In this document: positions 6,294 through 32,280 of the stretch, piece by piece
Layout: each line of letters begins with the position of its first letter
How positions within the stretch are numbered: position 1 is the first letter of the stretch
Assembly: GCA_022615255.1 (NCBI GenBank)
Contig: JAKEHC010000037.1
Location: 1-34,113 of the forward strand
Direction of reading: 5' to 3'
DNA length: 34,113 nt
Source: Candidatus Dadabacteria bacterium
GTDB taxonomy: Bacteria; Desulfobacterota_D; UBA1144; Nemesobacterales; CSP1-2
The notes under the pieces: generated by a model
The model's database searches: none
What the model saw: the letters and a program-made list of their open reading frames with translations, nothing else
What the model was told of the DNA's origin: nothing
Made by a program: the position numbers and the translations under genes

Positions 6294-7121
6294 TCACGTA
6301 TTAACAGCTTTTTCAATACGACTTGCTCCGCACTGATGACCAAGGGGCATTACAATAAGTTTCTTCATCCAAACATCCTCAATTTTAGGATAGTCTTTGA
6401 GTCCATAAATAATTTTCTCATGTTCGGTGAGTTCGGTATATGTACCAAAGAGCCTATCCCAAATTGAGAATAGGTTTGAGTAATTAGAGTTTGTTTCCTT
6501 TAACTTATCGGAGTGGTGGATGTGGTGCATATCCGGGGTAACAAATAATAATCGGGTGATCGATTCCCAGGGTTCTGGAATCCTTATGTTAGCATGCTGA
6601 AATTGGGCGGCTAATCCAAGAGCTGCTTCATGAACAGCTAGGGCTATCGCACTTGGTCCCCATAACAGACCAACAACCATTTTGAAAGCAGATGAAAGTG
6701 CAACCTCAGATAGATGAAATCTGGAAGCACTCGTCACATCGACATCCAAATCGCTATGATGCACACGGTGCAAACGCCACAAAAAGGGTATTCTATGATA
6801 AGCCATGTGCCAGATATATGTCACGAAATCAAGGAAAATCAATGAAAGGATGATATCTGTCCAAGCACCCAGATGAAAAAAGTTTAATAACCCTATGCCG
6901 TGTTTAGCCAATGCTTCATAGTAGGCAACTATAAAGCTGCCTACTGTTATATACATGATTAAACCATTACTGACTCCAATGGATATGTTTCTGATATAAT
7001 GTTTTATTCTAGATTCTAGAGGCTTTCGAAATTGGAAGAAAATTTCAAGGGCACCGAATATAGCTAATCCTCCAAAAGCAACTAAGAACCTCCAGAATCC
7101 TGTTTCAATGGCGATTTCCAT
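6294..7121 (-). CDS. Fatty acid hydroxylase / sterol desaturase family membrane protein
   Basis: Three histidine boxes (HMAYH, HRVHH, HHIHH) and several hydrophobic helices. The ATG at 7121 is preceded by GGAGA; the listed ORF begins at a TTG at 7142. Confidence 0.85.
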   Translation of the reverse strand: MEIAIETGFWRFLVAFGGLAIFGALEIFFQFRKPLESRIKHYIRNISIGVSNGLIMYITVGSFIVAYYEALAKHGIGLLNFFHLGAWTDIILSLIFLDFVTYIWHMAYHRIPFLWRLHRVHHSDLDVDVTSASRFHLSEVALSSAFKMVVGLLWGPSAIALAVHEAALGLAAQFQHANIRIPEPWESITRLLFVTPDMHHIHHSDKLKETNSNYSNLFSIWDRLFGTYTELTEHEKIIYGLKDYPKIEDVWMKKLIVMPLGHQCGASRIEKAVNT

Positions 7122-7209
7122 CTTATTATCTCCAACTATCAATGGGCATGGCGTACTCTACTCTTCGAAGCATACAATCGGCTGCGAGACAAAACTTTAT
7201 CCCTTCATA

Positions 7210-7875
7210 CTACTTCTCTTTTTGTGAAGAAATTACTATAAACCCTCCTTCTCCATAACCCTCTTTTATTGGCTCAATAGCGCGTATCTTTTCCGGATTT
7301 TTTAAGATTGTCTGACGTAACTTGATATTCTTATGCTCCATCCTTCTTAGCCATTCTACAACTTCGTTTACAGAGTAAAAACGAGCATATCGATGAAATT
7401 TGCTTTTATTCTTTTTGGATTCATAAATCCTACCCACAGTACTTTTCTTGTCTATCATTCCAATAATCATATACCCACGAGATTTAAGAACCCTCTTTGC
7501 TTCTTGCAGTCCTTTTATCGGATTCCGGAGAAAGCATATGGTTGTTACCATTAATACAAAATCGAAAGAGGCGTCATCGAAAGGAAGGTCTTCTGCCTTT
7601 GCCTTAACGACCTCTATGCCCCGCTTTCGCGCTATTCCTGACATCGCTTCTGCTGGCTCCACCCCTAGCTTTATACCAAGAGGAAGTGCAAATCTCCCAC
7701 TGCCTACACCTACTTCTAAACCTTTACCTTTTTTCGGAAGGAATTTTCGTAACGCCAGAACTTCTGACTCGTAAACAAACCGATTTTCATCAAACCACTT
7801 ATCGTATTCCTGAGCCAGTTCATCAAAGATTTGGATTCTTTTATCCCAATTATCATGTTTTAAAACCATTTCCAT
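7210..7875 (-). CDS. Class I SAM-dependent methyltransferase (Methyltransf_11-like)
   Basis: Motif I is LEVGVGSGRF, followed by an acidic post-I residue and FDFVLM. The start is uncertain (GTG 7884, ATG 7875 or ATG 7869). Confidence 0.8.
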   Translation of the reverse strand: MEMVLKHDNWDKRIQIFDELAQEYDKWFDENRFVYESEVLALRKFLPKKGKGLEVGVGSGRFALPLGIKLGVEPAEAMSGIARKRGIEVVKAKAEDLPFDDASFDFVLMVTTICFLRNPIKGLQEAKRVLKSRGYMIIGMIDKKSTVGRIYESKKNKSKFHRYARFYSVNEVVEWLRRMEHKNIKLRQTILKNPEKIRAIEPIKEGYGEGGFIVISSQKEK

Positions 7876-7929
7876 AGCCACCACTTTTCAAATAGAACCG
7901 CCATTCAGCATATATCTCTCGCCACAATA

Positions 7930-8262
7930 TTATTTTCTAGCTCTTTGAATTAAAGTTCCTTCTCTTGATATCCGTTCAAATAAAATCTTCCTAAGGATGT
8001 CGAAGGCTTTAAGCATCTTCGGGTTTGTAAGCCTATAATAAACATGATTCCCCTCCTTCCTTATGTCTAGAATGCCCCGCTCTTTCATCATGATTAGATG
8101 CTGTGACAAGTTTCCTATAGAAACGCTTAACCTCTTTGAAAGCTCGCCAACGCCCATCTCTCCCTCGCGAAGGGTATTTATGACCTCAAGCCTCTTTGGG
8201 TTAGAAAGAACCTTACACATCGAGGCATGCAGTTCGTAGATCCGCCTTTCTATCTTTTCCAT
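7930..8262 (-). CDS. ArsR/SmtB family transcriptional regulator
   Basis: Winged-HTH signature LSNPKRLEVINTL...GELSKRLSVSIGNLSQHLIMMKERGIL. The ATG at 8262 has an SD-like GGAGAGAAGGGA upstream; the alternative ATG at 8280 has none. Confidence 0.85.
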   Translation of the reverse strand: MEKIERRIYELHASMCKVLSNPKRLEVINTLREGEMGVGELSKRLSVSIGNLSQHLIMMKERGILDIRKEGNHVYYRLTNPKMLKAFDILRKILFERISREGTLIQRARK

Positions 8263-8286
8263 TTTGTCCCTTCTCTCCATACTAAG

Positions 8287-8337
8287 GTATTATAGAATTC
8301 TCTATAATACTATATCATAAGAATTCAAAAGTATCAA
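8287..8337 (-). promoter_or_regulatory. Sigma70-type promoter plus palindromic operator of the ArsR-led operon
   Basis: On the minus strand the promoter reads TTGATA (8337-8332), a 17-nt spacer, then TATAGT (8314-8309). Immediately downstream, overlapping the -10 element, is a perfect 10-4-10 inverted repeat GTATTATAGA-attc-TCTATAATAC (8287-8310). Confidence 0.7.
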
Positions 8338-8379
8338 TTTTGTAACAAGTTATTAAAATAGAAAAATGCTGAATTGGGT

Positions 8380-9699
8380 TTACGCTATAGGCTTCCTGCT
8401 TTCCTCTATGCCTCGTGCTTCATTCACAAAAAGAAGGAGGAGTAAGCCGAGAGCAAAAAATACTATAAGCGCTATCACTGCAAGACGAATTGAGTCAAAT
8501 GCGTGGCTAATAAATGCAAAGGTGAATGGGCCTATTGCAGATGAAAATTTACCGCCTAGGGCATAGAATCCGAAAAACTCCGCTGTTTTTTCACGCGGGG
8601 TAAAAAGCCCGAACAGGGAGCGGCTTACTGCCTGACTACCTCCCAATATAAATGCAATGAACACCCCTATCGTCCAGAATTCAAATTTCGTCTTAATAAA
8701 AAAAGCCCATATTACAACGGCACACCAAATAACCAAGCTGAGAATAATCGCTCGTTTGTTGCCGAGTTTATCAGCTACGTACCCCAATAATAGAGAACCA
8801 GAAAAGGCTACGATTTGTCCAACGAGGAATAAGGTTATAATCTCAGACTGGGATATCCCTAAAAGCTCGCTTCCAAAAACAGCTGCCATGACTATCACGG
8901 TCTCAATCCCTTCATTATAGACTAGAAAGGTAATTAAAAACTTAAATAGCTCCTTATGTTGCCTGATCCTTTTAAATGTAAGCACCACCCGTTTGAATCC
9001 TATGCTTATATAGTTCTCCCCAGTTGGTAGTGGATTTCCCCATCTCCTCTCTCGAACCAAGAGAAATGTAAATACGGCAAAGAGAGCCCACCAGGCTGCG
9101 ACAGAGAGGATAACAAAACGAACCGGTAGATGGTCTTTATCTGGAATTCCAAGGACCTCTGGGTATCGAATCATGACGAGGTTTATGGCAAGAAGTATAC
9201 CTCCGCCTATAAACCCGAGTGCCCACCCAAAGCCTGAAATCCTTCCTATGTTTTCCTTTGTGGAAATCTCCGGGAGAAAGGCGTTATAGAAACCTAAACT
9301 TCCTGCAAAGAAGTAGTTTGCCAGCATATAAAAAATCATTGCAAATATGTAATCTCCCTCTTTTGCGAAAAATAGAAGCCCTGTAAAAAGACAGGCAAGG
9401 TAACAATATAGAAAAAGAAATTTTTTCTTTGTCCCGGAAAAATCAGCTATGGCGCCTAAGATTGGTGATGTAAATATAACCAATACGATTGATAAAGATA
9501 CTGTGTAGCCCCAGAGAGCGCTTGCAGGTATATTGTGTCCAAATATGTCCGCTCCGCCATCCCCTACCACCACCTTTGTAAAATAAACATTAAATACAAC
9601 AGAGCTTATTGTTGTAGCAAACGCCGAGTTAGCGAAATCGTACATCCCCCAACCGAATATCTCCTTCCTGTCGGGAATGGCTGTTTGATTCTGGCTCAC
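8380..9699 (-). CDS. MFS transporter, UMF1/Atg22-like family
   Basis: 439 aa with about 12 hydrophobic segments. The N-terminal FGWGMYDFANSAFATTI is typical of the UMF1 family. Confidence 0.8.
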   Translation of the reverse strand: MSQNQTAIPDRKEIFGWGMYDFANSAFATTISSVVFNVYFTKVVVGDGGADIFGHNIPASALWGYTVSLSIVLVIFTSPILGAIADFSGTKKKFLFLYCYLACLFTGLLFFAKEGDYIFAMIFYMLANYFFAGSLGFYNAFLPEISTKENIGRISGFGWALGFIGGGILLAINLVMIRYPEVLGIPDKDHLPVRFVILSVAAWWALFAVFTFLLVRERRWGNPLPTGENYISIGFKRVVLTFKRIRQHKELFKFLITFLVYNEGIETVIVMAAVFGSELLGISQSEIITLFLVGQIVAFSGSLLLGYVADKLGNKRAIILSLVIWCAVVIWAFFIKTKFEFWTIGVFIAFILGGSQAVSRSLFGLFTPREKTAEFFGFYALGGKFSSAIGPFTFAFISHAFDSIRLAVIALIVFFALGLLLLLFVNEARGIEESRKPIA

Positions 9700-9960: not shown

Positions 9961-10575
9961 TTAAACCATCATAGGCTTAACCTTGGCTCTTGGCTTAACA
10001 TCCCTCTCATAAAGCCTTGGATCGTTCTGCCAGGTCATGAACCTGTCGAAGATCTCCTTCAGTTTCTTCCTTACAGAAGTCCAGTGAAAATTCCAATCGT
10101 AGTCTACTCGTCCTTTAAAAAACATCTGGTAGAAGATGCCCCTTTCCTCCGCTCTTCCCTTCTCCCCTATCCACCCCGTGCGGGCATAGCCATACCCGCT
10201 TCCAAATCCAATGCTAAATGTTCCTAAAAGGCCAAGCTTCTCCCCGGCTTTTGCAGCAAACTCGATAAACACATAAAGAGCTTCTATAGTCTTATACCCG
10301 TACTGGTCAAAGTTCTTATCCATCAAAATAAGGTTTTTAAGAAGATACATTGGATAAAATGTGGGGGCATAGCCTGAAACGGATTTTGTAGGGCTTATTA
10401 TTGGCTCCCTGATTATTACGTCTTCTTCTATAATCCCTATCATAAAATCCTCCTGGGAAAACTCTCCTATATCGCCGCAGTGGTCAAGAGATATTCGTAA
10501 ATTACTCCACTCCCTTTTTGCAATACCAATAGCCTTTTCCAGGGTTTCTCTTCTTTTTTCGTATTCATCAAGCAT
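9961..10575 (-). CDS. Hypothetical protein (204 aa, no motif recognised)
   Basis: Long ORF with no competing frame. It has no signal peptide or TM segment and contains a Gly/Tyr-rich patch (FSIGFGSGYGYARTGWIGEKG). I cannot assign a family. Confidence 0.6.
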   Translation of the reverse strand: MLDEYEKRRETLEKAIGIAKREWSNLRISLDHCGDIGEFSQEDFMIGIIEEDVIIREPIISPTKSVSGYAPTFYPMYLLKNLILMDKNFDQYGYKTIEALYVFIEFAAKAGEKLGLLGTFSIGFGSGYGYARTGWIGEKGRAEERGIFYQMFFKGRVDYDWNFHWTSVRKKLKEIFDRFMTWQNDPRLYERDVKPRAKVKPMMV

Positions 10576-10717
10576 TTAACATCCTTCCCCCGGTTGTAAC
10601 TTGGGCGCTTTAAATATACATATTTGATCTTGAATTATCAAAGGATTGTTTGTCTTATGCCAATAACATTTTGAACCAATATTCTCTCCTCATTTAATAC
10701 CGTGTGATTTTCACTTT

Positions 10718-10745
10718 GTAGAGACGTATTGCAATGCGTCTTTAC
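10718..10745. repeat. REP-like 28-nt palindrome, GTAGAGAC subfamily (GTAGAGACGTATTGCAATGCGTCTTTAC)
   Basis: Self-complementary apart from two positions, both G.U-compatible. It lies in a divergent intergenic region. Confidence 0.85.
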
Positions 10746-10870
10746 TGCACCTTCTTAAATTCTCTAATCAATGCCCTTCCAGCAATCTGCGGGAATATCA
10801 GCATATCAACACACATTCTCTTCCGTCATTACGGGGGCGCATTATTTCGAGCGCAGTTTTCAATGACTGT

Positions 10871-12625: not shown

Positions 12626-13048
12626 TCAATTTCTTTCCTTTCTTTTTTTCTCTAAATAACCCTCAAGTATAAAAGCGGCAGCCATTTTATCAATAACCTT
12701 CTTTCTCTTTTTTCGGCTGAGGTCTGCCTCAATCAGCATCTTTTCTGCATCCGCTGTGGAGAAGCTCTCATCCCAGTACTCGACGGGCAGAGAGAAAGCA
12801 TTCTTTATTTCTTCGGCAAATTTTAATATACCCTCTCCTCTTTTATTGACTGTGCCATCATCATTATAAGGGACACCGACTAAAACCTCAGAGGGATTGT
12901 ACTGACCTATAATTCTACGAAGCGCCTCCAGATCGCGCTTCAAGTCAGTCCTTTTTATAGTCGTAACCCCATGAGCCGCAATCCCAAGCTCATCGCTTAC
13001 GGCAACCCCGATTGTTTTTGTACCAATGTCTAGTGCTAAGATGCGCAT
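12626..13048 (-). CDS. ruvX: Holliday junction resolvase-like protein RuvX (YqgF)
   Basis: MRILALDIGTKTIGVAVSD at the N-terminus. The 140-aa length and the C-terminal DKMAAAFILEGYL are typical of YqgF. Confidence 0.9.
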   Translation of the reverse strand: MRILALDIGTKTIGVAVSDELGIAAHGVTTIKRTDLKRDLEALRRIIGQYNPSEVLVGVPYNDDGTVNKRGEGILKFAEEIKNAFSLPVEYWDESFSTADAEKMLIEADLSRKKRKKVIDKMAAAFILEGYLEKKRKERN

Positions 13049-13137
13049 CAGGAGAATTTAAAATCTGATATTGTTCTAGTTATACTGTAAACTTCAGTTA
13101 ATTGAAATAAGATACCAGCATAAACCAATTTAAAACA

Positions 13138-14373
13138 ATGCATATGAGTTATAAAAGCATAAAAGCCTTTAATGAAATTTCTTGGTCTAGTTTTTTTAAA
13201 GAGTATTCTGATCGTATAAGAGAAGAAATAGAAAGTAAAGGGAAAAAGTACATATTAGGAGTCGACGAAGAAGAATACAAAAATTACCTTTTTGAAAAAT
13301 ACTTGCTTGAACCCTTAGAAATTGATATAAAAAACGAACAAACTGACGAACCAACAAAATCAACAGAATGGGTCGAGAGTAGAATACCAGGCAACAAATT
13401 TCAGCGAGAATTTTATATTTTTACAGTTAGGTACCTCTTTAAAGGTTTTCCAATCCTGTTCAGAGTACAACCCGATACCTGGCAAGTAACCTCATATGAT
13501 ATCTATGTTGATGAAGAAAATTCAACGGTATCTTTCAATTTTAAACTTTACAACAAAGACCCAGAAGAATTCAAAAGAAAAAAATCAAATTGTTTTACTG
13601 ATGCATTTATAAATATTGAAAATATCAATAAAAATGCTAAAAGTTGGAATGATTCGCTTAGGCATTTAGTAAGTTCTTTATTTAATTCGCTAAAAGCAAA
13701 GTACCTAGATGAAAATAAATTTTTCGAGGCAATCAATATCAAAGCAAATAAGGATGCTGACTCTATCTTTACTGCACCAACTATAAAGAAAAAAATTATT
13801 CCGCAACCAGCTGTATCTTCAAAAAAAGAGCTTTCTTCCGTGCCCACAATGAGTAAGGAAATGTACGATGATGTTCTAAGAGTTATTTACAATGCAGGAA
13901 AAAGTATGGAAAAGAAACCTGCCCTATATCAAGATAAAGATGAAGAAGGGTTAAGAGATCAGTTCCTTTTTATGCTAGAAACAAGATATGAAGGTACAAC
14001 TGCTACAGGGGAAACATTTAATAGAAGTGGCAAGACCGATATTCTGCTAAAGTACGCCAAAGATGGTAGTAACCTATTTGTTGCTGAATGCAAATTTTGG
14101 CATGGAGCTTCCGAATTTCGTGAAGCTATCAATCAATTATTTGATAAATATTTAACTTGGAGAGATTCTAAGGTGGCTTTAATACTATTTGTAAAAAACA
14201 AAGAATTTACAAAAGTCATAGAGACAATCAAGTCTGAGACAGTAAAACACCCATATTTTACTACGGAAATGGGAACAAGAGGAGAAACCTCTTTTTCTTA
14301 TATTTTTCATCTACCACAAGATAAAGAGAAGGACGTTTATTTTGAAATAATAGCCTTCCATTACGATAAATAA
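13138..14373 (+). CDS. Orphan 411-aa protein: unrecognised N-terminal domain plus a C-terminal PD-(D/E)xK-type nuclease-like domain
   Basis: Long ORF in a markedly AT-rich stretch with no SD upstream. The C-terminal half reads EEGLRDQFLFMLE...GKTD(301)ILLKY-x11-FVAE(317)CK(319)FW, followed by the helix ASEFREAINQLFDKYL and the strand VALILFV. This is the canonical E...D...ExK order of the restriction-endonuclease fold. I recognise nothing in residues 1-230. Confidence 0.75.
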   Translation: MHMSYKSIKAFNEISWSSFFKEYSDRIREEIESKGKKYILGVDEEEYKNYLFEKYLLEPLEIDIKNEQTDEPTKSTEWVESRIPGNKFQREFYIFTVRYLFKGFPILFRVQPDTWQVTSYDIYVDEENSTVSFNFKLYNKDPEEFKRKKSNCFTDAFINIENINKNAKSWNDSLRHLVSSLFNSLKAKYLDENKFFEAINIKANKDADSIFTAPTIKKKIIPQPAVSSKKELSSVPTMSKEMYDDVLRVIYNAGKSMEKKPALYQDKDEEGLRDQFLFMLETRYEGTTATGETFNRSGKTDILLKYAKDGSNLFVAECKFWHGASEFREAINQLFDKYLTWRDSKVALILFVKNKEFTKVIETIKSETVKHPYFTTEMGTRGETSFSYIFHLPQDKEKDVYFEIIAFHYDK

Positions 14374-14376
14374 AAT

Positions 14377-14499
14377 ATGGTTAATGAGCAAAAGGCAAAG
14401 CAAATAGCACAATCTTGGATAGAAACCTGGAACCGTCACGACCTCGTTGCCATATTATCTCATTATGTCGATGATATGGAGTTCACGTCAATTACATAG
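14377..14499 (+). pseudogene. Remnant (first ~40 codons) of a SnoaL/NTF2-like (ketosteroid isomerase-like) gene
   Basis: MVNEQKAKQIAQSWIETWNRHDLVAILSHYVDDMEFTSIT* matches the typical N-terminus of SnoaL-like proteins (..W..AWN.HDLDA....Y.DD.EF.SP), which are normally about 110-140 aa. It stops at a TAG after 40 codons, and no frame continues the homology. Its base composition resembles the host-like genes rather than its AT-rich neighbours. Confidence 0.6.
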
Positions 14500-14590
14500 T
14501 ATATCTCTTCATACTACTAAAGAAATTCACCTGCAGAATTCAAGGTCACAATCTTCAAGCAAATGAAACAGAAGTTCTAATGTTGTTTCT

Positions 14591-14629
14591 TTGCTTTATT
14601 TAGGTGTATATTATATTATTAACATACAC
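14591..14629 (+). promoter_or_regulatory. Putative vapBC promoter with an overlapping inverted-repeat operator
   Basis: TTGCTT (14591-96), a 17-nt spacer, then TATTAT (14614-19). The inverted repeat GTGTATATTA...TTAACATACAC (14604-14629; the outer arms match at 9 of 10 positions) spans the -10 element. The SD GGAGA lies at 14633-37. Confidence 0.5.
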
Positions 14630-14643
14630 ACTGGAGACCGAAG

Positions 14644-14838
14644 ATGAAAAAGGCAAGAGAAAGACTAAAAAGAAAAAATATATACTTAGATGAGGGAAAG
14701 CTTAAAGAACTAAGAGAGATACTAAATGTCAACACAAACAGTGAGGCTTTAAGAGAAGCCACAGAAATTGTAGTATCGGGGAAGAAGATTTCAGAGGCTT
14801 TTGAAAGACTCAGAATTAGGGGTACTTGGGGAAGGTGA
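14644..14838 (+). CDS. vapB: Type II antitoxin, VapB-like (DUF2191-type)
   Basis: A 64-aa basic protein. NIYLDEGKLKELREILNVNTNSEALREATEIVV resembles DUF2191-type VapB antitoxins. It has an SD upstream, and its stop overlaps the start of the PIN gene. Confidence 0.7.
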   Translation: MKKARERLKRKNIYLDEGKLKELREILNVNTNSEALREATEIVVSGKKISEAFERLRIRGTWGR

Positions 14839-15284
14839 CAAAGCTAAGGGGGATTGTATTTGACTCCTCGATATTAATCCCGTATCTCCGTGGACTTCGT
14901 TATGGAGAATTGGTAAAAACTGTTTTCGAGAAAGGAAGAGGGTTTATAGTAACACTAGTACTGTTTGAGCTTTATAGCGGAGTCCGCTCTAAAGAGGATA
15001 AAAAAGAGTTAGATATCATATTCCAAGAATCTCGAAGGATAGGTAGGATACTTAGCCCTGAGATAGATGATTGGTCAAAAGCTGGACTATTTGTATCTCA
15101 ATATATAAGACTTTACGGTAGAGTTGAACCGAGAGACCACATGAATGATTTAATGATTGCTTTAGTTGCATCAAAACATGGGCACACAGTTATTACCGAG
15201 AATAAAAAGCATTTTGAAAACTGGAAAAGAATTTTCAATAGATCAGGGATTCAGCTTAATTTCATAGATATGGCAGTTCTATGA
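14835..15284 (+). CDS. vapC: PIN-domain ribonuclease toxin VapC
   Basis: The PIN acidic residues are in order: VFDSS (Asp), LFELYSG (Glu), MNDLMIA (Asp), and ITEN near the C-terminus. The GTG at 14835 overlaps the vapB TGA (GTGA), suggesting translational coupling. The listed ORF starts at a TTG at 14826. Confidence 0.8.
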   Translation: MTKLRGIVFDSSILIPYLRGLRYGELVKTVFEKGRGFIVTLVLFELYSGVRSKEDKKELDIIFQESRRIGRILSPEIDDWSKAGLFVSQYIRLYGRVEPRDHMNDLMIALVASKHGHTVITENKKHFENWKRIFNRSGIQLNFIDMAVL

Positions 15285-15301
15285 AATTTCCCAAACCCTT
15301 C

Positions 15302-15922
15302 TTAAAACGATGACCCCGGTTGTTTTAAGAATTCAATCTCTTGAGACGTTGATTTGCGCTCGAGTATTTCGTTTCTATGAGGAAATCTGCCAAACCTTTC
15401 GATAATCACATAGTGCCTCTCTGCATAATCCCTAAATTCCGTCATCATTGACGCTAAAGAAGGTGGAGAGGTAAAGAGTTTCTCCAGGATAGTAAAATAT
15501 TCAACTGACTTCTTTTGCATCTCTAAGTCTTCTGAATGCTCTAAGGGCATATAAAAGAAAAGCCTTTCGACTGGATGGAGTTTCTTATCAAAACCCTTCT
15601 GAACCCCTCGCAAGTAAACTCCGAGCGCCAACGAGTCTTGGGCAAACGCCCTTTCAGTTCCTCGATACATATTTCTTGAAAACTGATCTAGCAGTATTAT
15701 AAGAGCCAGTGTTCCTTGAGGTGAATCCTCCCAGCTTTTTAACTTACCTTCTACAGCATATTTTAAGTCATCCTCAAAATTGGTTTTTATGGACTCATCA
15801 ACCTCATTACTCTTTGAAAACCACATTTTGTAGTATTCGCCTGAAGGCGCCTCGCCCTCTTTAAGTTCACCAAACCAGTAATTTAGAATTACTCTCTGAC
15901 GTTGTTCATATTCTAAGTTCAT
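15302..15922 (-). CDS. DUF924 family protein
   Basis: ILNYWFGE..., LALIILLDQFSRNMYRGT, YMPLEHSED and RFGRFPHRNEILERKST form the characteristic DUF924 motif series. Confidence 0.85.
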   Translation of the reverse strand: MNLEYEQRQRVILNYWFGELKEGEAPSGEYYKMWFSKSNEVDESIKTNFEDDLKYAVEGKLKSWEDSPQGTLALIILLDQFSRNMYRGTERAFAQDSLALGVYLRGVQKGFDKKLHPVERLFFYMPLEHSEDLEMQKKSVEYFTILEKLFTSPPSLASMMTEFRDYAERHYVIIERFGRFPHRNEILERKSTSQEIEFLKQPGSSF

Positions 15923-16124: not shown

Positions 16125-16901
16125 CTAAAATACAAGAAACAATTTAGTAAGGAAAAAATCCCCTATAATTATAAGCACAAGTGAAATCACAACGGTAAGC
16201 GTCGTAGCCCTTCCAACCCCCTCCGTACCCCCCTCTGCCTTCATTCCGATGTAGCAACCGACAATTGCAACAATTATCCCAAAAAAAACGGTCTTTGATA
16301 TCCCGCTAATAAAATCCGAGATGCCGACCTGCTGCATCACCCCTGATATAAAAAGCCTTGGGGTGACCCCTAATTCTGAATTAGCGATGATCATCCCGCC
16401 AATAATGCCTACGAGGTCTGCAATTATTGAGAGAAAGGGAAATGAAATTAACGCCGCGATGAATCTCGGAACGACGAGCTTCCTTATAGGATCTGCTCCA
16501 AGGGTTCTTATCGCATCAATCTGCTCCGTAACCTTCATAGAGCCGATTTCCGCCGTGATCCCTGACCCTACCCTTCCGCCAACGAGTAATGATGTAAGCA
16601 CCGGTCCTAATTCCCTCACTATTGCAAGGGAGACTACGGGACCCACCAGCCCTTTCGCGCCAAACCTGGCAAACCCATAAGCTAGCTGGAGAACCATTAC
16701 CATCCCAATAGCCAGAGATGAGAGAATGACAATGGGAATGGATTTAAAACCTATCTCATCTATTTGTTCCAGCACAAGTCGAAGGTTAAATGGAGGGGTT
16801 AAGCTGTAGCGTATTGTTCTATAAAGAAGAACCCCGACGTCTCCAAGACTCTCGACTAAAGAAACGAAATATTTCCCTATTGCAGAAATAAAACCTTTCA
16901 C
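16125..16901 (-). CDS. mlaE: MlaE-family ABC transporter permease
   Basis: 258 aa with the typical MlaE/YrbE profile (GVLLYRT..., LVGPVVSLAIVRELGPVLT.LLVGGRVGS.ITAEIGSMKVTEQIDA). GTG start at 16899-16901. Confidence 0.85.
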   Translation of the reverse strand: MKGFISAIGKYFVSLVESLGDVGVLLYRTIRYSLTPPFNLRLVLEQIDEIGFKSIPIVILSSLAIGMVMVLQLAYGFARFGAKGLVGPVVSLAIVRELGPVLTSLLVGGRVGSGITAEIGSMKVTEQIDAIRTLGADPIRKLVVPRFIAALISFPFLSIIADLVGIIGGMIIANSELGVTPRLFISGVMQQVGISDFISGISKTVFFGIIVAIVGCYIGMKAEGGTEGVGRATTLTVVISLVLIIIGDFFLTKLFLVF

Positions 16902-17443
16902 TATTTAATAACCCTGAATTGCGATAGAAAATTTTTAAATTCGCTATATCCGCTTTCAAACCCATCCGGTGAAGAGGCGTAAGTAAAATCATAGACACAA
17001 CTATCTTTTTTAAAAACTGCGGCGCTCAGTTTCACTGAAGCGCTATCCAGTTTCCCCAAGTAAATACCCTCAAGCGCCTTTTCACCGCTAATAATAATTT
17101 CCTTTTCTTCAACCATTTTTTTCTCCTTAAAACCGATAAGAAGTGAATTAGAAAGCGCCTTCAGACTGTAGTTCGCCTTTATCTTGCATGTCGAGTTAAC
17201 GGTTATTGTCGACTGATTCATTTCATTAAAGAATGCCAGGTCTCCTCCCTTGATATTAATTCTCTTCCAGTTATCCGACAGTTTTCCCATCTCATATGTC
17301 GTATCTTTGGACTCATAAACCTGTCCTCTGAGTTTCCCACTAGAAGAATTATCGGCAGAGGCATAATAACGAGCAAATTTAACGACCGAACAGGAATTAA
17401 AGAAAACAGAGAAAAAAACTATGGTTACAAAGAATCTTTTCAT
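16901..17443 (-). CDS. Probable lipoprotein, function unknown (180 aa)
   Basis: Signal peptide MKRFFVTIVFFSVFFNSC with a Cys at the cleavage position. Its stop overlaps the mlaE GTG by 1 nt (TAGTG). No MCE-domain motifs were seen. Confidence 0.65.
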   Translation of the reverse strand: MKRFFVTIVFFSVFFNSCSVVKFARYYASADNSSSGKLRGQVYESKDTTYEMGKLSDNWKRINIKGGDLAFFNEMNQSTITVNSTCKIKANYSLKALSNSLLIGFKEKKMVEEKEIIISGEKALEGIYLGKLDSASVKLSAAVFKKDSCVYDFTYASSPDGFESGYSEFKNFLSQFRVIK

Positions 17444-18528: not shown

Positions 18529-19144
18529 TCTCTAGGACAATTCCCTCTATGATGTTTGCCACGTCTTCACAGGTATCAATAGCTTCTTCGAGTGTTTCGT
18601 ATATGTCTTTCCACTTGATTATCTCGATCGGATCGGAAGGCGAATTAAATAATACCGACTGAGCAATTCTGTAAGTTCTGTCTCCTTCATTTTCAAGCCG
18701 ATTGATTTCTATGCAGGTGTCAAGTATTGAGCGGGAATTTTTTAGATTTCTAAGTCCCCCTACACCCTTTGCAACCTCCTCTATGGCTTTCTCAAGAGTA
18801 TTAACTAAAGCTATCGCTTCTGGTGTTGTGTTCGTTATTTTGTAAAGAAGGATTCGCTCGCACGTAGCATAAATAAGGTCAAGAATATCATCCATCTTTG
18901 TAATAAGCGTATAAATGTATTCACGATCAATTGGAGTTACAAAAGTTTTATGCAACTTGGATACAGTTTCATGGGTTATGCGATCGGCTTCATGCTCAAC
19001 GTCTTTTATCTGCCTCGTTTTCTCTTCTACCTTCGACAAATCATGTACCATCTCCTTGAGGAGCCTTATCCCGCGAATCATCTTTTCTGAGGCTTCATCA
19101 AAGTAATCGAAAAATTTCTCTTCTTTTGGAAAAAACCTGACCAT
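18521..19144 (-). CDS. DUF47 / PhoU-like phosphate transport regulator (TIGR00153 family)
   Basis: FFDYF....A at the N-terminus, HEAD...H and ENEGD motifs. It overlaps the downstream PiT gene by 8 nt, which is the canonical DUF47-PiT pair. Confidence 0.85.
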   Translation of the reverse strand: MVRFFPKEEKFFDYFDEASEKMIRGIRLLKEMVHDLSKVEEKTRQIKDVEHEADRITHETVSKLHKTFVTPIDREYIYTLITKMDDILDLIYATCERILLYKITNTTPEAIALVNTLEKAIEEVAKGVGGLRNLKNSRSILDTCIEINRLENEGDRTYRIAQSVLFNSPSDPIEIIKWKDIYETLEEAIDTCEDVANIIEGIVLENA

Positions 19145-19191
19145 TAGAACACCCCTTATGAAAATTTGAATGATTATAACATGTTAAACAT

Positions 19192-19221
19192 ACAAACCTG
19201 ATTTTTTAAAATCAGGTTTGT
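19192..19221. promoter_or_regulatory. 30-nt near-perfect palindrome in a divergent promoter region (ACAAACCTGATTTT-TT-AAAATCAGGTTTGT)
   Basis: 14-nt arms around a 2-nt centre, 48 nt upstream of the DUF47-PiT operon start. Both flanking genes point away from it, so a terminator role is unlikely. Confidence 0.5.
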
Positions 19222-19296
19222 TCACGCAATCATACTTGAAACCCCGACAAAAACCAAGCATCATAACGATATAATCTCCAATGGGAGTAAATTAAC

Positions 19297-19338
19297 GCAT
19301 CTTGTATTATGAATCGTACATCTTGCTTATTTTATTCG
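19297..19338. repeat. Heptad-periodic stretch upstream of grx
   Basis: Six in-phase units: gcatctt gtattat gaatcgt acatctt gcttatt ttattcg. Confidence 0.5.
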
Positions 19339-19379
19339 TGGTTGAAGCATGTGAGCTTAAATGCGGAGGCTAATCTAAA

Positions 19380-19631
19380 TTGAGCAACGTTGTTATATAT
19401 ACAACAGCATACTGTCCATACTGTAGGGCTGCTAAGAGACTTCTTGATAGTAAAGGTGTAAAATACAAAGAAGTTGATATCACTGAAGACCTAGAGGTGA
19501 AAAGTAAGGTCATGGATGAGCTTGGCTGGAAAACCGTGCCTATAATACTAATTAATGAAAAACTCATAGGCGGTTACGACCAGTTGAGGGAACTGGAAAG
19601 AGAAGGAAAGCTGGATGAGATGCTTAAGTAA
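19380..19631 (+). CDS. grxC: Glutaredoxin (Grx3-type)
   Basis: YTTAYCPYCRAAKRLL (CPYC active site), TVPIILINEKLIGGYDQL; 83 aa. TTG start with GGAGG about 10 nt upstream. Confidence 0.9.
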   Translation: MSNVVIYTTAYCPYCRAAKRLLDSKGVKYKEVDITEDLEVKSKVMDELGWKTVPIILINEKLIGGYDQLRELEREGKLDEMLK

Positions 19632-29532: not shown

Positions 29533-30426
29533 ATGAAAGAAGGTATTGTCGGAGTCACAGGTAGTACGGGATTTGTTGGAAGAAGTATAGTAAAAAAACT
29601 CCTAGAGGATAGGTGGAAGGTAAGATGTATTCTAAGAAAACCCGACGGCGGGGAAGCCCTAAAAAAACAAGGGGTAGATATCTACAAAGGAGACATTACG
29701 AATAAGCCCTCGATTGATAAGTCCTTCTTCCAAGATTTAAGCTACGTAATCCACCTGGTTGGAATAATTAAAGAGGTAGACACACAGACATTTGAGAGGG
29801 TTCACTTTCAGGGAACTAAGAATGTCGTTGACCTGGCAAAAGAAGCCGGGGTGAAAAAATACGTCCATATGAGCGCGCTCGGAACAAGGAAAGATGCAAA
29901 AAGTAAATACCACTCTACAAAGTGGAAAGCCGAGGAATACCTGAGGAAAAGCAGCTTAACCTATACGATTTTCAGACCCTCAATAATATTCGGTCCTGAC
30001 GATGAATTCATCAATACATTCATCCGCATAATCAAGCTTTCGCCCTTCGTCCCAGTCATTAAAGGAGGAAAACTCCAGCCCATATATGTAGGAGATGTCT
30101 CCCACTGTTTTGTGCAGTCCCTGACTAACACGAAAACAGATGGAAAAACGTTTGAGCTTGGAGGTAATAAACAATACACACTAGAAGAAATAATAAAACT
30201 TATGATGAAGGTGCTTAATGTAAAGCGTATTCTAATACCAATCCCAAGCCTTTTGATGTACCCTCCTGCATTTCTTTTTCAAAATGTCTTAAGAAACCCT
30301 CCATTAACCCTGGATCAGCTCATAATGCTTGAAGAAGATAATGTATGCGATATGAAGGAAGTGGAGGATGTATTCTCATTCTCACCGCTACCACTTGAAG
30401 ATGCACTAAAGCAGTATCTCGGTTGA
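29533..30426 (+). CDS. NAD(P)-binding SDR-family protein (NDUFA9/NmrA-like epimerase fold)
   Basis: The N-terminal motif is VTGSTGFVGRSIV, with Y..K (YHSTKWKAE) and FRPSIIFGP. Confidence 0.8.
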   Translation: MKEGIVGVTGSTGFVGRSIVKKLLEDRWKVRCILRKPDGGEALKKQGVDIYKGDITNKPSIDKSFFQDLSYVIHLVGIIKEVDTQTFERVHFQGTKNVVDLAKEAGVKKYVHMSALGTRKDAKSKYHSTKWKAEEYLRKSSLTYTIFRPSIIFGPDDEFINTFIRIIKLSPFVPVIKGGKLQPIYVGDVSHCFVQSLTNTKTDGKTFELGGNKQYTLEEIIKLMMKVLNVKRILIPIPSLLMYPPAFLFQNVLRNPPLTLDQLIMLEEDNVCDMKEVEDVFSFSPLPLEDALKQYLG

Positions 30427-30490
30427 TTAGAAATGATAATTATAATAGCCTATTTTGTATAATCGGTCGTTAAAATAAATTTAAAAGAAT

Positions 30491-30518
30491 GTAGGGGTAC
30501 GCTGCAGCGTGCCCCTTA
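30491..30518. repeat. Degenerate REP-like palindrome, GTAGGGGCAC subfamily (GTAGGGGTACGCTGCAGCGTGCCCCTTA)
   Basis: Positions 3-26 are self-complementary with one T.G position. The right terminus is altered (CTTAG instead of CTAC). Confidence 0.7.
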
Positions 30519-30660
30519 GTAAAAGAATGGTTAGAGATTTAATTCACCCCCTTTATGGCGAAAAGACTAGTTTTATTATTTTTTCACACAAGCGCAAGGG
30601 AGAATTATCTCTACCGACCACATAAATTTTAAAAAAACAGTAGACAAGGGCTATAATTTT

Positions 30661-32280
30661 ATGATAAATATAATCTTTGTGAATAGTAGGCTTCTCATAT
30701 TATTAATGCTTCCAGTTTTCCTCCTACACTGCGAAGGCAGAGAAAAGGAATCCTCTCCCTCCGCATTACTAAATAAAGATAGGCTTAATATAAACATAGG
30801 CTCCGAGCCCCCCACGCTTGATTGGTCTCTTGCAACTGACAGCACCTCATACACCATCATACTCAATATTATGGACGGACTTACTAGATTTGGAAAAGAC
30901 TATAAGCCTGAGCCGTCACTTGCCGAGAGCTGGGAGATAAGTGAGGATGGAAGGATCATAACCTTCCACCTAAGAAAAAATGTATTCTGGAGCGACGGAA
31001 AACCTCTCATTGCTAGGGATTTTGAATACTCATGGAAGCGTCTTCTTAATCCCAAGACTGGCGCAGACTATGCCTACTTTCTCTATGATATAGAAGGTGG
31101 AAAGGAATACAACACAGGCAAAGAAAAAGACCCTGAAAAGATCGGTGTAAAAGCACTGGACGACAGTACCCTCCTTGTAAAACTGAAGCGCCCTGCCTCT
31201 TATTTTCTTAGCCTGCTTACGTTTATGTCTACATTCCCGATGAGACAAGACGTAGTCGAAAAACACGGTTTAAAGTGGACAGAGCCTAAAAATATAGTCA
31301 CTCTCGGACCCTTTTATCTCTCCAATTGGCGCCATCACGAAAGGATTCTACTCACTAAGAACCCGAATTACTGGGGAGAGAAGCCAAAGCTCAACAAAGT
31401 CGAAATGGTAATGGATGAGAACCCGACATCGGCTCTTGCCCTTTACGAAGGTGGGGAGCTTGACTATATTGATGGAAGAAGCATACCAGTGCTTGAAGTC
31501 CCAAGGCTCAGATTATCGCAAGAGTTTAAAACTGAGCCGCAGTTCAGGGGAAACTATATCGGGTTTAATGTAAAGAAGCCGCCATTTGATAACCCCCTTG
31601 TAAGACGTGCCTTTTCTGCCGCGGTTGACAGGTCTAAGATCGCGGAGCTTATACAGGGTGCAGGAATTCCTACTACCTCTTGGATCCCTCAAGGGATGCT
31701 TGGATATGATCCCGAAATTGGAATCGAATTTAATCCCGATAAGGCTAAGACCTGGCTCGCTGAGGCAAGATACCCGGGTGGAAACGGATTTCCTGAGATA
31801 ATTTTTCTATATCCCGATGTCGGAAATAATAGAATAGTCTCTGAAGCCCTGCAAAACATGTGGAAAAGATATTTGGGAGTACATGTAGAGCTCCAGAACC
31901 AGGAATGGAAGGTTTATCTAAGCACCCTTGATACCGACCCGCCGCAGGTCTTTCGAGCCAACTGGGGTGCGGATTTTCCAGACCCGCATAATTTTATGAA
32001 CCTCTTTGAGTGTAACAGCGGAAATAACGAAACAAAATGGTGTGATAAGATGTACGATGAGCTTATAGAAAGAGCAGCTGCAGAAGATAACACTGAAAAA
32101 CGTGTCGCAATTTATAAAGAAGCGCAGAAAATTCTTACAGAGACCGAGGTTCCGATTGCCCCTATCATGACCTCAATCCAACAGAGCATGATAAAACCAT
32201 ATGTGGCAGGTCTCAGCCTTAACCCGCTTGGTATGGTCTTCTTCAACCAGGTATCGTTTGCTGACAAGGCGTCAAACTGA
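30661..32280 (+). CDS. ABC transporter substrate-binding protein, family 5 (peptide/nickel, OppA/DppA-like), probable lipoprotein
   Basis: Signal peptide ending LLHC. Family-5 SBP motifs are present (DGLTRFGKDYKPEPSLAESWEISEDG, FHLRKNVFWSDG, NPNYWG). 539 aa. Confidence 0.85.
   Translation: MINIIFVNSRLLILLMLPVFLLHCEGREKESSPSALLNKDRLNINIGSEPPTLDWSLATDSTSYTIILNIMDGLTRFGKDYKPEPSLAESWEISEDGRIITFHLRKNVFWSDGKPLIARDFEYSWKRLLNPKTGADYAYFLYDIEGGKEYNTGKEKDPEKIGVKALDDSTLLVKLKRPASYFLSLLTFMSTFPMRQDVVEKHGLKWTEPKNIVTLGPFYLSNWRHHERILLTKNPNYWGEKPKLNKVEMVMDENPTSALALYEGGELDYIDGRSIPVLEVPRLRLSQEFKTEPQFRGNYIGFNVKKPPFDNPLVRRAFSAAVDRSKIAELIQGAGIPTTSWIPQGMLGYDPEIGIEFNPDKAKTWLAEARYPGGNGFPEIIFLYPDVGNNRIVSEALQNMWKRYLGVHVELQNQEWKVYLSTLDTDPPQVFRANWGADFPDPHNFMNLFECNSGNNETKWCDKMYDELIERAAAEDNTEKRVAIYKEAQKILTETEVPIAPIMTSIQQSMIKPYVAGLSLNPLGMVFFNQVSFADKASN

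Follow-up and report, generated by a model that had tools for sequence, protein, structure and literature searches.

The locus considered here, positions 13049-15301 of a 34,113-nt stretch of contig from a Candidatus Dadabacteria metagenome-assembled genome (the whole stretch being 'the window' in what follows), is a markedly AT-rich interval between ruvX and a DUF924 gene, and it raises the question of how such an interval came to sit there and what it carries. It holds three elements: a 411-aa gene (13138-14373, + strand; NCBI protein L0Y68_01685) of the PADLOC family PDC-S54 (PDLC05036), a candidate single-gene anti-phage nuclease; the stump of a SnoaL/NTF2-like gene; and a vapBC-like toxin-antitoxin pair. 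The initial annotation placed all three correctly, and took the interval for a horizontally acquired defence or addiction islet, possibly assembled in two steps on either side of the SnoaL remnant. Our comparisons favour a somewhat different reading, in which the ruvX-DUF924 interval is a cargo slot, i.e. a hotspot for defence and toxin-antitoxin genes in one Dadabacteria clade, that happens here to be occupied by two modules with separate histories; we would put the probability of this at roughly three in four.

Cargo turnover between ruvX and DUF924

Related loci (given L numbers of our own) were found in genome and metagenome collections using RuvX as an anchor, and were supplemented with contigs encoding the closest PDC-S54 and VapC homologues. 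Throughout the clade the frame is conserved, being made up of LON-abhydrolase-ruvX and, at the opposite end, DUF924 and/or MlaE, and it is the interval between them that varies: at least seven different cargo states were recovered, along with an empty site (L089) in which just 185 nt separate the DUF924 stop from the ruvX start. This is the pattern of a hotspot flanked by core genes, and it bears out the accessory, non-core character first ascribed to the interval; both an empty site and intact SnoaL genes, which had been pictured for this locus in close relatives, do exist.

The nearest counterparts of the window's own content are distributed over different relatives. L172 has an intact PDC-S54 gene (75% amino-acid identity; 536-1771), followed directly by an intact SnoaL-like gene (127 aa), then by ferritin and MlaE; in L169-171, ruvX is followed by PDC-S54 (79% amino-acid identity; L169:383-1597); and L003 has a 139-aa in-frame deletion derivative of PDC-S54, an intact SnoaL gene (121 aa), small WXXGXW-repeat proteins and a DUF924 fragment. 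In L168, PDC-S54 is joined to a DUF4258 toxin-antitoxin region of the type seen in L002, so that cargo modules evidently recombine in different combinations. L166 and L167 have a 245-300-nt spacer and then vapBC only. Other relatives carry GIY-YIG (with a weak match to PDC-S02), a DUF4258/MqsA-like (YgiT-like) pair and DUF924 (L002 and L086), a nucleotidyltransferase matching PDC-S09/PDC-M05A at ~3e-9 together with a SnoaL gene containing an internal stop (L004), a type II methyltransferase (PADLOC E 3.8e-47) with a 172-aa open reading frame (ORF; L087), or unrelated genes (L088). The cargo is therefore enriched for defence and toxin-antitoxin functions (PDC-S54, vapBC, methyltransferase, DUF4258/MqsA-like pair, GIY-YIG, nucleotidyltransferase), the exceptions being L088, where it is not defence-related, and part of L003. 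None of the relatives examined has all three of the window's elements: module 1, comprising PDC-S54 and the 5' end of SnoaL, is common to L003, L172 and L169-171, and vapBC to L166 and L167, separate distributions that substantiate the earlier suspicion of two modules, with the SnoaL remnant where they meet.

The borders of the interval are exact. On the left, beyond ruvX (YqgF/RuvX family; 12626-13048, - strand; Pfam RuvX E 2.9e-44), homology to L002, L166 and L167 ends at 13048/13049, the ruvX start; on the right, homology to L002 and L003 restarts at 15302, the stop of the DUF924 gene (15302-15922, - strand; Pfam DUF924 E 5.8e-65). Homology to L166 is unbroken from 14561 through vapBC and DUF924 to 15945. 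Along with a break inside SnoaL at 14489/14490, this gives four homology breakpoints, the remaining two being the left edge of vapBC at 14561 and the DUF924 stop at 15301/15302. The intergenic region between ruvX and PDC-S54 (13049-13137; 25.8% GC) aligns with its counterpart in L169, L172 and L003, with common blocks such as GAAATAARATACCAG, and has no homology to the ruvX-proximal spacer of L166 or L167. All carriers have homologous versions of both this spacer and the PDC-S54/SnoaL junction, so that module 1 has a single origin.

The point at which the two modules meet is marked by the SnoaL stump (14377-14499, + strand), a 40-codon ORF with its stop at 14497-14499 and a SnoaL_2 match at E 0.0089, which falls well short of a complete SnoaL_2 domain (~120 aa). 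The stump's homology to the intact genes covers codons 1-38, with 74% amino-acid identity over 38 residues to SnoaL of L003 (SnoaL_2 8.3e-15) and 68% to that of L172; homology ends at 14489/14490, with DNA homology to L003 extending to 14489. Beyond it lie 71 nt of junction filler (14490-14560), for which blastn-short against all related loci returned the window itself only; the spacers of L166 and L089 were likewise without homologues in the related loci. The truncation may have occurred in situ, either when vapBC arrived or when a deletion ran up to the stump, or the stump may have arrived with a recombined segment.

None of the hallmarks of an integrase-mobilised genomic island (integrase or recombinase, tRNA or attachment site, flanking direct repeats) was found. 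There is no integrase or recombinase among the called genes of the 21 kb around the islet; a tRNA/tmRNA scan of the window gave 0 genes; Rfam produced no match, either for the whole window at gathering threshold or for 12900-15400 at E up to 1; and the search for flanking direct or inverted repeats gave short A-rich matches only, which we judge to be chance; as regards integrase, tRNA and direct repeats, this agrees with the initial annotation. We suggest that cargo would instead be swapped, truncated or lost without a dedicated integrase, most likely through homologous recombination in the flanks combined with illegitimate deletions. In its conserved flanks, interchangeable and AT-richer cargo and empty alleles, the slot resembles the core defence hotspots reported for Pseudomonas aeruginosa (PMC10250203) and the integration hotspots reported for the E. 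coli pan-genome (PMC10121019), and differs from these in its very short span (0.2-3 kb, with one to four genes) and in having no mobile-element hallmarks. We regard it as an unexceptional case of an already recognised type of defence hotspot.

Several of the related loci have features of their own. In L168, the region downstream of PDC-S54 (1263-2011) is repeat-rich and contains the DUF4258 gene known from L002. The 139-aa ORF of L003 (9460-9879, - strand) has lost 273 codons of PDC-S54, D301 among them, but keeps the E-C-K segment and an open frame, and could be either a remnant in decay or a piece that has been kept; the same locus has, separating SnoaL from the DUF924 fragment (6903-8756), a run of small signal-peptide-like ORFs, two with WXXGXW repeats (PF12779), which are not defence-related. 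The SnoaL-like gene of L004 (9149-9262, - strand) has a TGA at the Trp codon of its relatives' 'EWIE', which splits the ORF; this is likely to be a pseudogene or a sequencing error. In L087 (142-1307, - strand), a type II N6/N4 DNA methyltransferase (218 aa) overlaps the 172-aa ORF, which has no family match, and the pair may be a small restriction-modification (R-M) system with an unrecognised endonuclease. Finally, contig L167 ends (1725-1848) in an inverted ruvX 5' end (window 12925-13048) immediately after vapC; this is probably an assembly artefact, and the DUF924 side of the vapBC allele is accordingly confirmed in L166 only.

Base composition and the age of the two modules

The visible drop in base composition reported at first is real: GC content is 33.3% in 13049-15301 and 43.5% in the other 32 kb, the lowest-GC segment of 2253 nt in the whole sequence starts at 13055, and the islet lies at z = -4.6 relative to non-overlapping segments of equal length (mean 43.3%, sd 2.2%, minimum 39.0%). 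The tetranucleotide test suggested alongside showed no comparable deviation, the islet ranking an unexceptional 32nd of 319 windows once base composition is corrected for; its anomaly is one of base and codon composition and not of oligonucleotide signature. The PDC-S54 gene (31.8% GC) has the lowest GC at third codon positions (GC3) among the 34 ORFs of at least 100 aa, at 0.255 (mean 0.43, sd 0.058), and vapC the second lowest (0.32). The SnoaL stump, as had been noted, is host-like (GC3 0.44). Milder low-GC stretches (35-37%) occur elsewhere in the window, at 30001-30750, 19001-19500, 7001-7500 and 10251-10750.

Does low GC here signify recent arrival, as first supposed? For PDC-S54 the divergence data suggest otherwise. 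Synonymous and non-synonymous divergence (dS and dN) were estimated by the Nei-Gojobori method (NG86/Jukes-Cantor). Between the window and L172, dS is 1.12 for PDC-S54, 1.46 for ruvX and 1.52 for MlaE (Fisher p = 0.19); between L003 and L172 it is 0.41 for PDC-S54 and 0.37 for ruvX; and between the window and L169 it is 0.60 for PDC-S54 and 1.18 for ruvX, this last from only 88 ruvX codons (p = 0.011). A dN/dS of 0.13-0.21 points to purifying selection, and hence to a maintained function. Moreover, the gene has 32-34% GC in all Dadabacteria copies, despite a dS of 0.4-1.1 between them, with no shift towards host composition. With the gene adjoining ruvX in four or more related lineages and its dS roughly tracking that of ruvX, it is an old resident that has been AT-rich throughout; its AT-richness reflects a persistent property of the gene and does not mark a recent arrival, and the islet is better seen as a long-standing polymorphic hotspot than as a recent insertion.

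The vapBC cassette behaves differently. Between the window and L166, dS is 0.30 for vapB and 0.49 for vapC, against 1.02 for ruvX and 1.36 for DUF924 (Fisher p = 7e-7), and between L166 and L167 it is 0.03 for vapB and 0.17 for vapC, against 0.37 for ruvX; vapBC dS is therefore 2-4 times below that of the flanks. The cassette looks younger than its flanks, which points to a more recent spread or exchange among lineages, though compositional constraint may instead have depressed its dS. Between L166 (660-851) and L167 (1024-1215), vapB shows about one synonymous change and many non-synonymous ones (dN/dS ~2.5), with vapC at dN/dS 0.24; the counts are small, and hint at fast evolution of the antitoxin.

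A neighbour-joining tree, weak in being drawn from 357 nt of ruvX, puts the vapBC and GIY-YIG lineages together with the window, and has L003, L172, L004 and L087 as a sister group. If this tree is right, PDC-S54 would predate the split, and would then have been repeatedly lost or replaced. We also considered import of the window's PDC-S54/SnoaL segment from a clade-B (L003/L172-like) donor, and found this to be unsupported, if still possible: the closest copies are those of L168-171 (84% nucleotide identity), which adjoin ruvX fragments 84-88% identical in amino-acid sequence to the window's own, as high as for its nearest relatives.

The PDC-S54 protein and the vapBC pair

The 411-aa gene had been described as an orphan, a view that must now be revised: its product matches the PADLOC PDC-S54 profile at E 1e-105 (352.5 bits), with residues 5-409 aligned to profile positions 3-406 of 410, and has 3147 homologue clusters in a collection of 5.8 billion proteins, though no Pfam or NCBIfam match. 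Together with the presence of vapBC, this also upholds the idea of defence or addiction cargo. The PDC families are 145 phage defence candidates, compiled from genes lying inside BREX, DISARM or type I R-M loci (Payne et al., 10.1101/2024.01.29.577857). The window gene is like other members of its family in being a full-length, single-gene match of ~400-415 aa with homologues near defence systems; it is unlike the family's seeds in lying outside any BREX, DISARM or type I R-M locus, in a core-flanked slot beside ruvX, and its host phylum is not evident among the named homologues of the catalogued family. As the initial annotation observed, the gene has no Shine-Dalgarno sequence, there being no GGAG ahead of the start at 13138, unlike vapB, which has one at 14633-14636.

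In three of four Bacteroidota genomes sampled, PDC-S54 homologues adjoin Gabija GajA/GajB, bSEFIR or SoFic, or lie no more than a few kb away. The four neighbourhoods comprise, respectively, Gabija GajA/GajB with Abi_C and a resolvase; bSEFIR within genes resembling an integrative and conjugative element (ICE); SoFic with a transposase; and unannotated genes. No two of the contexts examined have the same neighbours and no partner gene is constant, as would be expected of a defence system that consists of a single gene.

An AlphaFold2 model, built with 64 homologues (59-79% identity), divides the protein into two domains. The N-terminal domain (aa 1-199; 13138-13734, + strand), presumed to act in sensing or recognition, is an alpha/beta fold ending in a long helical hairpin, and when modelled alone reaches a predicted local distance difference test score (pLDDT) of 93.1 and a predicted TM score of 0.81; Foldseek finds no neighbour for it in the PDB (best E 0.098, probability 0.10). 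Its 197 representatives among 1.84 billion proteins are nearly all full-length members of ~400 aa, so that the architecture appears to be fixed. A linker predicted to be disordered (aa 200-236; 13735-13845, + strand; pLDDT 30-47) leads to the C-terminal domain (aa 237-411; 13846-14373, + strand), a predicted PD-(D/E)xK nuclease by motif and modelled fold. The predicted catalytic residues D301 (14038-14040) and E317 (14086-14088) are invariant among the 64 homologues, and K319 (14092-14094) is at least 90% conserved, which makes up a D...(D/E)-x-K motif; the modelled core runs alpha-beta-beta-beta-alpha-beta (helix 269-283; strands 287-290, 302-306 and 311-320; helix 324-338; strand 345-352).

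Foldseek aligns the C-terminal domain with a viral Mrr-domain restriction endonuclease in BFVD (D5L2B9; probability 1.00, E 3.4e-3), and the full-length model, against the PDB, with NucS (2vld, probability 0.84) and McrC (6hz4_M, probability 0.80), weak matches in that none in the PDB reaches E <=1e-3. The modelled core order and the conserved D...E-x-K motif are like those of the Mrr, NucS and McrC nucleases, and we consider the domain a probable PD-(D/E)xK nuclease of this Mrr/NucS/McrC-like type. A plan of N-terminal recognition and C-terminal nuclease resembles that of Mrr and other type IV enzymes. There are differences: PDC-S54 shows no significant sequence match to Mrr_cat (weak Pfam hits in 7 of the 64 members, best E 0.057); its N-terminal domain is unrelated to any solved DNA-binding domain; and it has no GTPase or ATPase partner such as McrB. 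The top full-length Foldseek matches in the PDB, Pol beta/lambda, were rejected as fold relatives, being spurious at a root-mean-square deviation of 18 Å, and a PDC-S54 profile search of PDB sequences gave only noise (best E 0.052). Weak Pfam AntA/AntB antirepressor matches were seen in 25 of the 64 members (best E 0.029) and may also be noise.

The second module begins with a conserved leader (14561-14643, + strand), homology of which to L166 and L167 starts at 14561. Within it, upstream of the GGAG, is a putative operator palindrome, GTGTAT (14604-14609) and ATACAC (14624-14629) at N14 spacing; the arms and the GGAG are kept in the window, L166 and L167. Scans for sigma-70 promoters and terminators gave counts equal to those in shuffled sequence, and nothing was called in the leader. 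The vapB-like antitoxin gene (64 aa; 14644-14838, + strand; PF09957 VapB_antitoxin E 0.0018) has no NCBIfam match and no PDB sequence match, and is 77-83% identical in L166 and L167. Its TGA stop overlaps by 4 nt (GTGA, 14835-14838) the GTG start of the vapC-like PIN-domain toxin gene (149 aa; 14835-15284, + strand), an arrangement also kept in L166 and L167, where vapBC is shared at 83-85% amino-acid identity. VapC matches Pfam PIN (PF01850) at E 1.5e-9 (38.9 bits against a 23.6-bit cut-off); the acidic residues E45, D105 and E122 are present in all four sequences, and D10 wherever it is covered, P0124 being without its N-terminal part.

In its antitoxin-first order, 4-nt overlap, PIN acidic residues and upstream palindrome, the operon is like type II VapBC systems with a DUF2191/VapB-type antitoxin. 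It is unlike typical VapBC in being very divergent: only 4 homologues sharing words with VapC were found in the 5.8 billion proteins, comparison of VapC with PDB sequences gave nothing meaningful, VapB scores below its Pfam cut-off and VapC below its NCBIfam equivalog cut-off. VapC is therefore best described as a predicted, divergent PIN toxin, rather than an equivalog of a VapC already characterised. Where the vapC and DUF924 genes converge, the vapC stop lies within an inverted repeat (15258-15288) whose 11-nt arms match perfectly around a 9-nt loop; this may be a bidirectional terminator, albeit with an AT-rich stem and no call from the terminator scan.

Proposed function, rival explanations and significance

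We propose a model for how the two modules might work. The N-terminal domain of PDC-S54 would recognise a phage-derived cue, whether DNA (foreign or modified) or a phage protein, and would then license the C-terminal nuclease to cut DNA, giving a restriction-like or abortive defence by a single polypeptide. VapC would act as a PIN-domain RNase with an intact acidic quartet, neutralised by VapB, which probably also represses the operon through the GTGTAT-N14-ATACAC palindrome; as an addiction module, vapBC would stabilise the slot, and it may possibly provide a backup abortive-infection switch. Purifying selection, the conserved D/E/K triad and the known defence neighbours add some evidence that PDC-S54 is a maintained, functional, defence-associated nuclease. 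A bolder version, in which it is a genuine single-polypeptide anti-phage system with a new kind of sensor licensing an Mrr-like nuclease, and has remained AT-rich and free of a Shine-Dalgarno sequence through long vertical residence (dS ~1), we advance only tentatively, and we would sooner bet against it than for it.

A number of points weigh against these proposals. As regards an anti-phage role, the name 'PDC-S54' is absent from the paper texts covered by a literature search, and it was not among the eight PDC candidates assayed in one study (PMC12881386). Support for the nuclease assignment comes from the motif and weak fold matches, with C-domain pLDDT at 44-92, and the N-terminal domain offers no functional clue. 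VapB, at 18.5 bits, is below the 23.4-bit Pfam cut-off, and VapC reaches NCBIfam NF047959 at E 2.4e-7 with 30.9 bits, against a cut-off of 80; the fourth acidic residue of its PIN domain is Glu (E122), where typical VapC proteins have Asp. The dS values come from short genes, a simple method and nearly saturated flanks, and in AT-rich genes a constraint on composition could account for part of the lowering of dS; the relationships among lineages are drawn from no more than 357 nt of ruvX; and the slot is known here solely from metagenome-derived sequences, all comparators being metagenome-assembled genomes or metagenomic contigs.

One worry with such material is that an assembly or binning chimera has joined foreign AT-rich DNA to a Dadabacteria contig, and the abrupt shift in composition at gene borders might be read in that way. 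However, a second, independent assembly (GCA_975097865.1) agrees over 21.2 kb at 99.94% identity, with identical gene order and all junctions included, and the ruvX|PDC-S54 (L169-172), PDC-S54|SnoaL (L003, L172) and vapC|DUF924 (L166) junctions each recur in other samples; the islet is thus not an assembly chimera on this evidence, and we consider that explanation vanishingly improbable. (The two assemblies differ by 12 single-nucleotide polymorphisms, 13254 among them; the single one within PDC-S54 is silent, and several are grouped in MlaE and orf180, at 16758-16922.) The opposite extreme, that the interval is ancestral core content with skewed amino-acid and codon composition, draws on the purifying selection acting on PDC-S54, and on the presence of PDC-S54 and of vapBC at this locus in several relatives at the same low GC. 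To that extent, module by module, relatives do carry the same genes with the same composition, which the initial annotation would have taken as a sign of core content; yet no relative examined has all three elements together, the site is empty in L089, L002/L086, L004, L087 and L088 hold unrelated cargo, and L003 has a deletion derivative, so that we find this reading very hard to sustain.

A recent single insertion from a distant low-GC donor such as Bacteroidota, in essence the picture drawn by the initial annotation, is a less remote idea, albeit still an improbable one. It would account for a GC of 33% against 43.5%, for the GC3 of 0.255 and for the start of PDC-S54 without a Shine-Dalgarno sequence, Shine-Dalgarno-poor starts being typical of Bacteroidota; and the named homologues outside Dadabacteria are all from that phylum (Saprospiraceae, Pedobacter, Pontibacter and Chryseobacterium, at 60-68% identity). 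What it fails to explain is the occurrence of PDC-S54 beside ruvX, with the same spacer and SnoaL junction, in L003, L172 and L169-171, a dS that tracks that of ruvX, and the independent occurrence of the two modules, with vapBC shared by L166 and L167 at 83-85% amino-acid identity; an ancient transfer from Bacteroidota is possible. Somewhat more plausible, though still unlikely in our view, is that PDC-S54 is no immune gene at all; it might instead serve repair or recombination as a nuclease partnered with the adjacent ruvX, or be a selfish nuclease or toxin. Anti-phage activity is a prediction, the PD-(D/E)xK motif is like that of the repair nuclease NucS, and the gene lies divergent from ruvX in at least four lineages; but none of the four contexts sampled beyond the Dadabacteria places it next to ruvX, and we rejected a functional link between the two because their adjacency is confined to Dadabacteria. 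Those contexts hold Gabija, bSEFIR, SoFic, Abi_C, resolvase, transposase and ICE genes, the PADLOC family was seeded from BREX-, DISARM- or R-M-embedded genes, and PDC-S54 is dispensable, having been lost, replaced or deleted in relatives. We therefore retain the cargo slot, with its two modules of separate history, as the preferred explanation.

Current concepts are unchanged by these findings, the value of which lies in annotation and in a reasonable candidate for experiment; the N-terminal domain of PDC-S54, flagged here as having no structural relative in the PDB, and the undrifted composition of the gene are perhaps the most useful leads. For the Dadabacteria, a phylum without cultivated members, the locus provides a clean, small, natural case in which defence and toxin-antitoxin genes turn over at a core-flanked slot, and in which alleles of every state (empty, alternative, intact and decayed) could be recovered. 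It also illustrates that a pronounced shortage of GC is no sure sign of a recent transfer, as PDC-S54, with a GC3 of 0.255 against ~0.43 in the core, has co-diverged with ruvX; and should the bolder reading of this family prove true, its 'foreign' composition would be something actively maintained, for instance for regulation or silencing, rather than the trace of a recent arrival.

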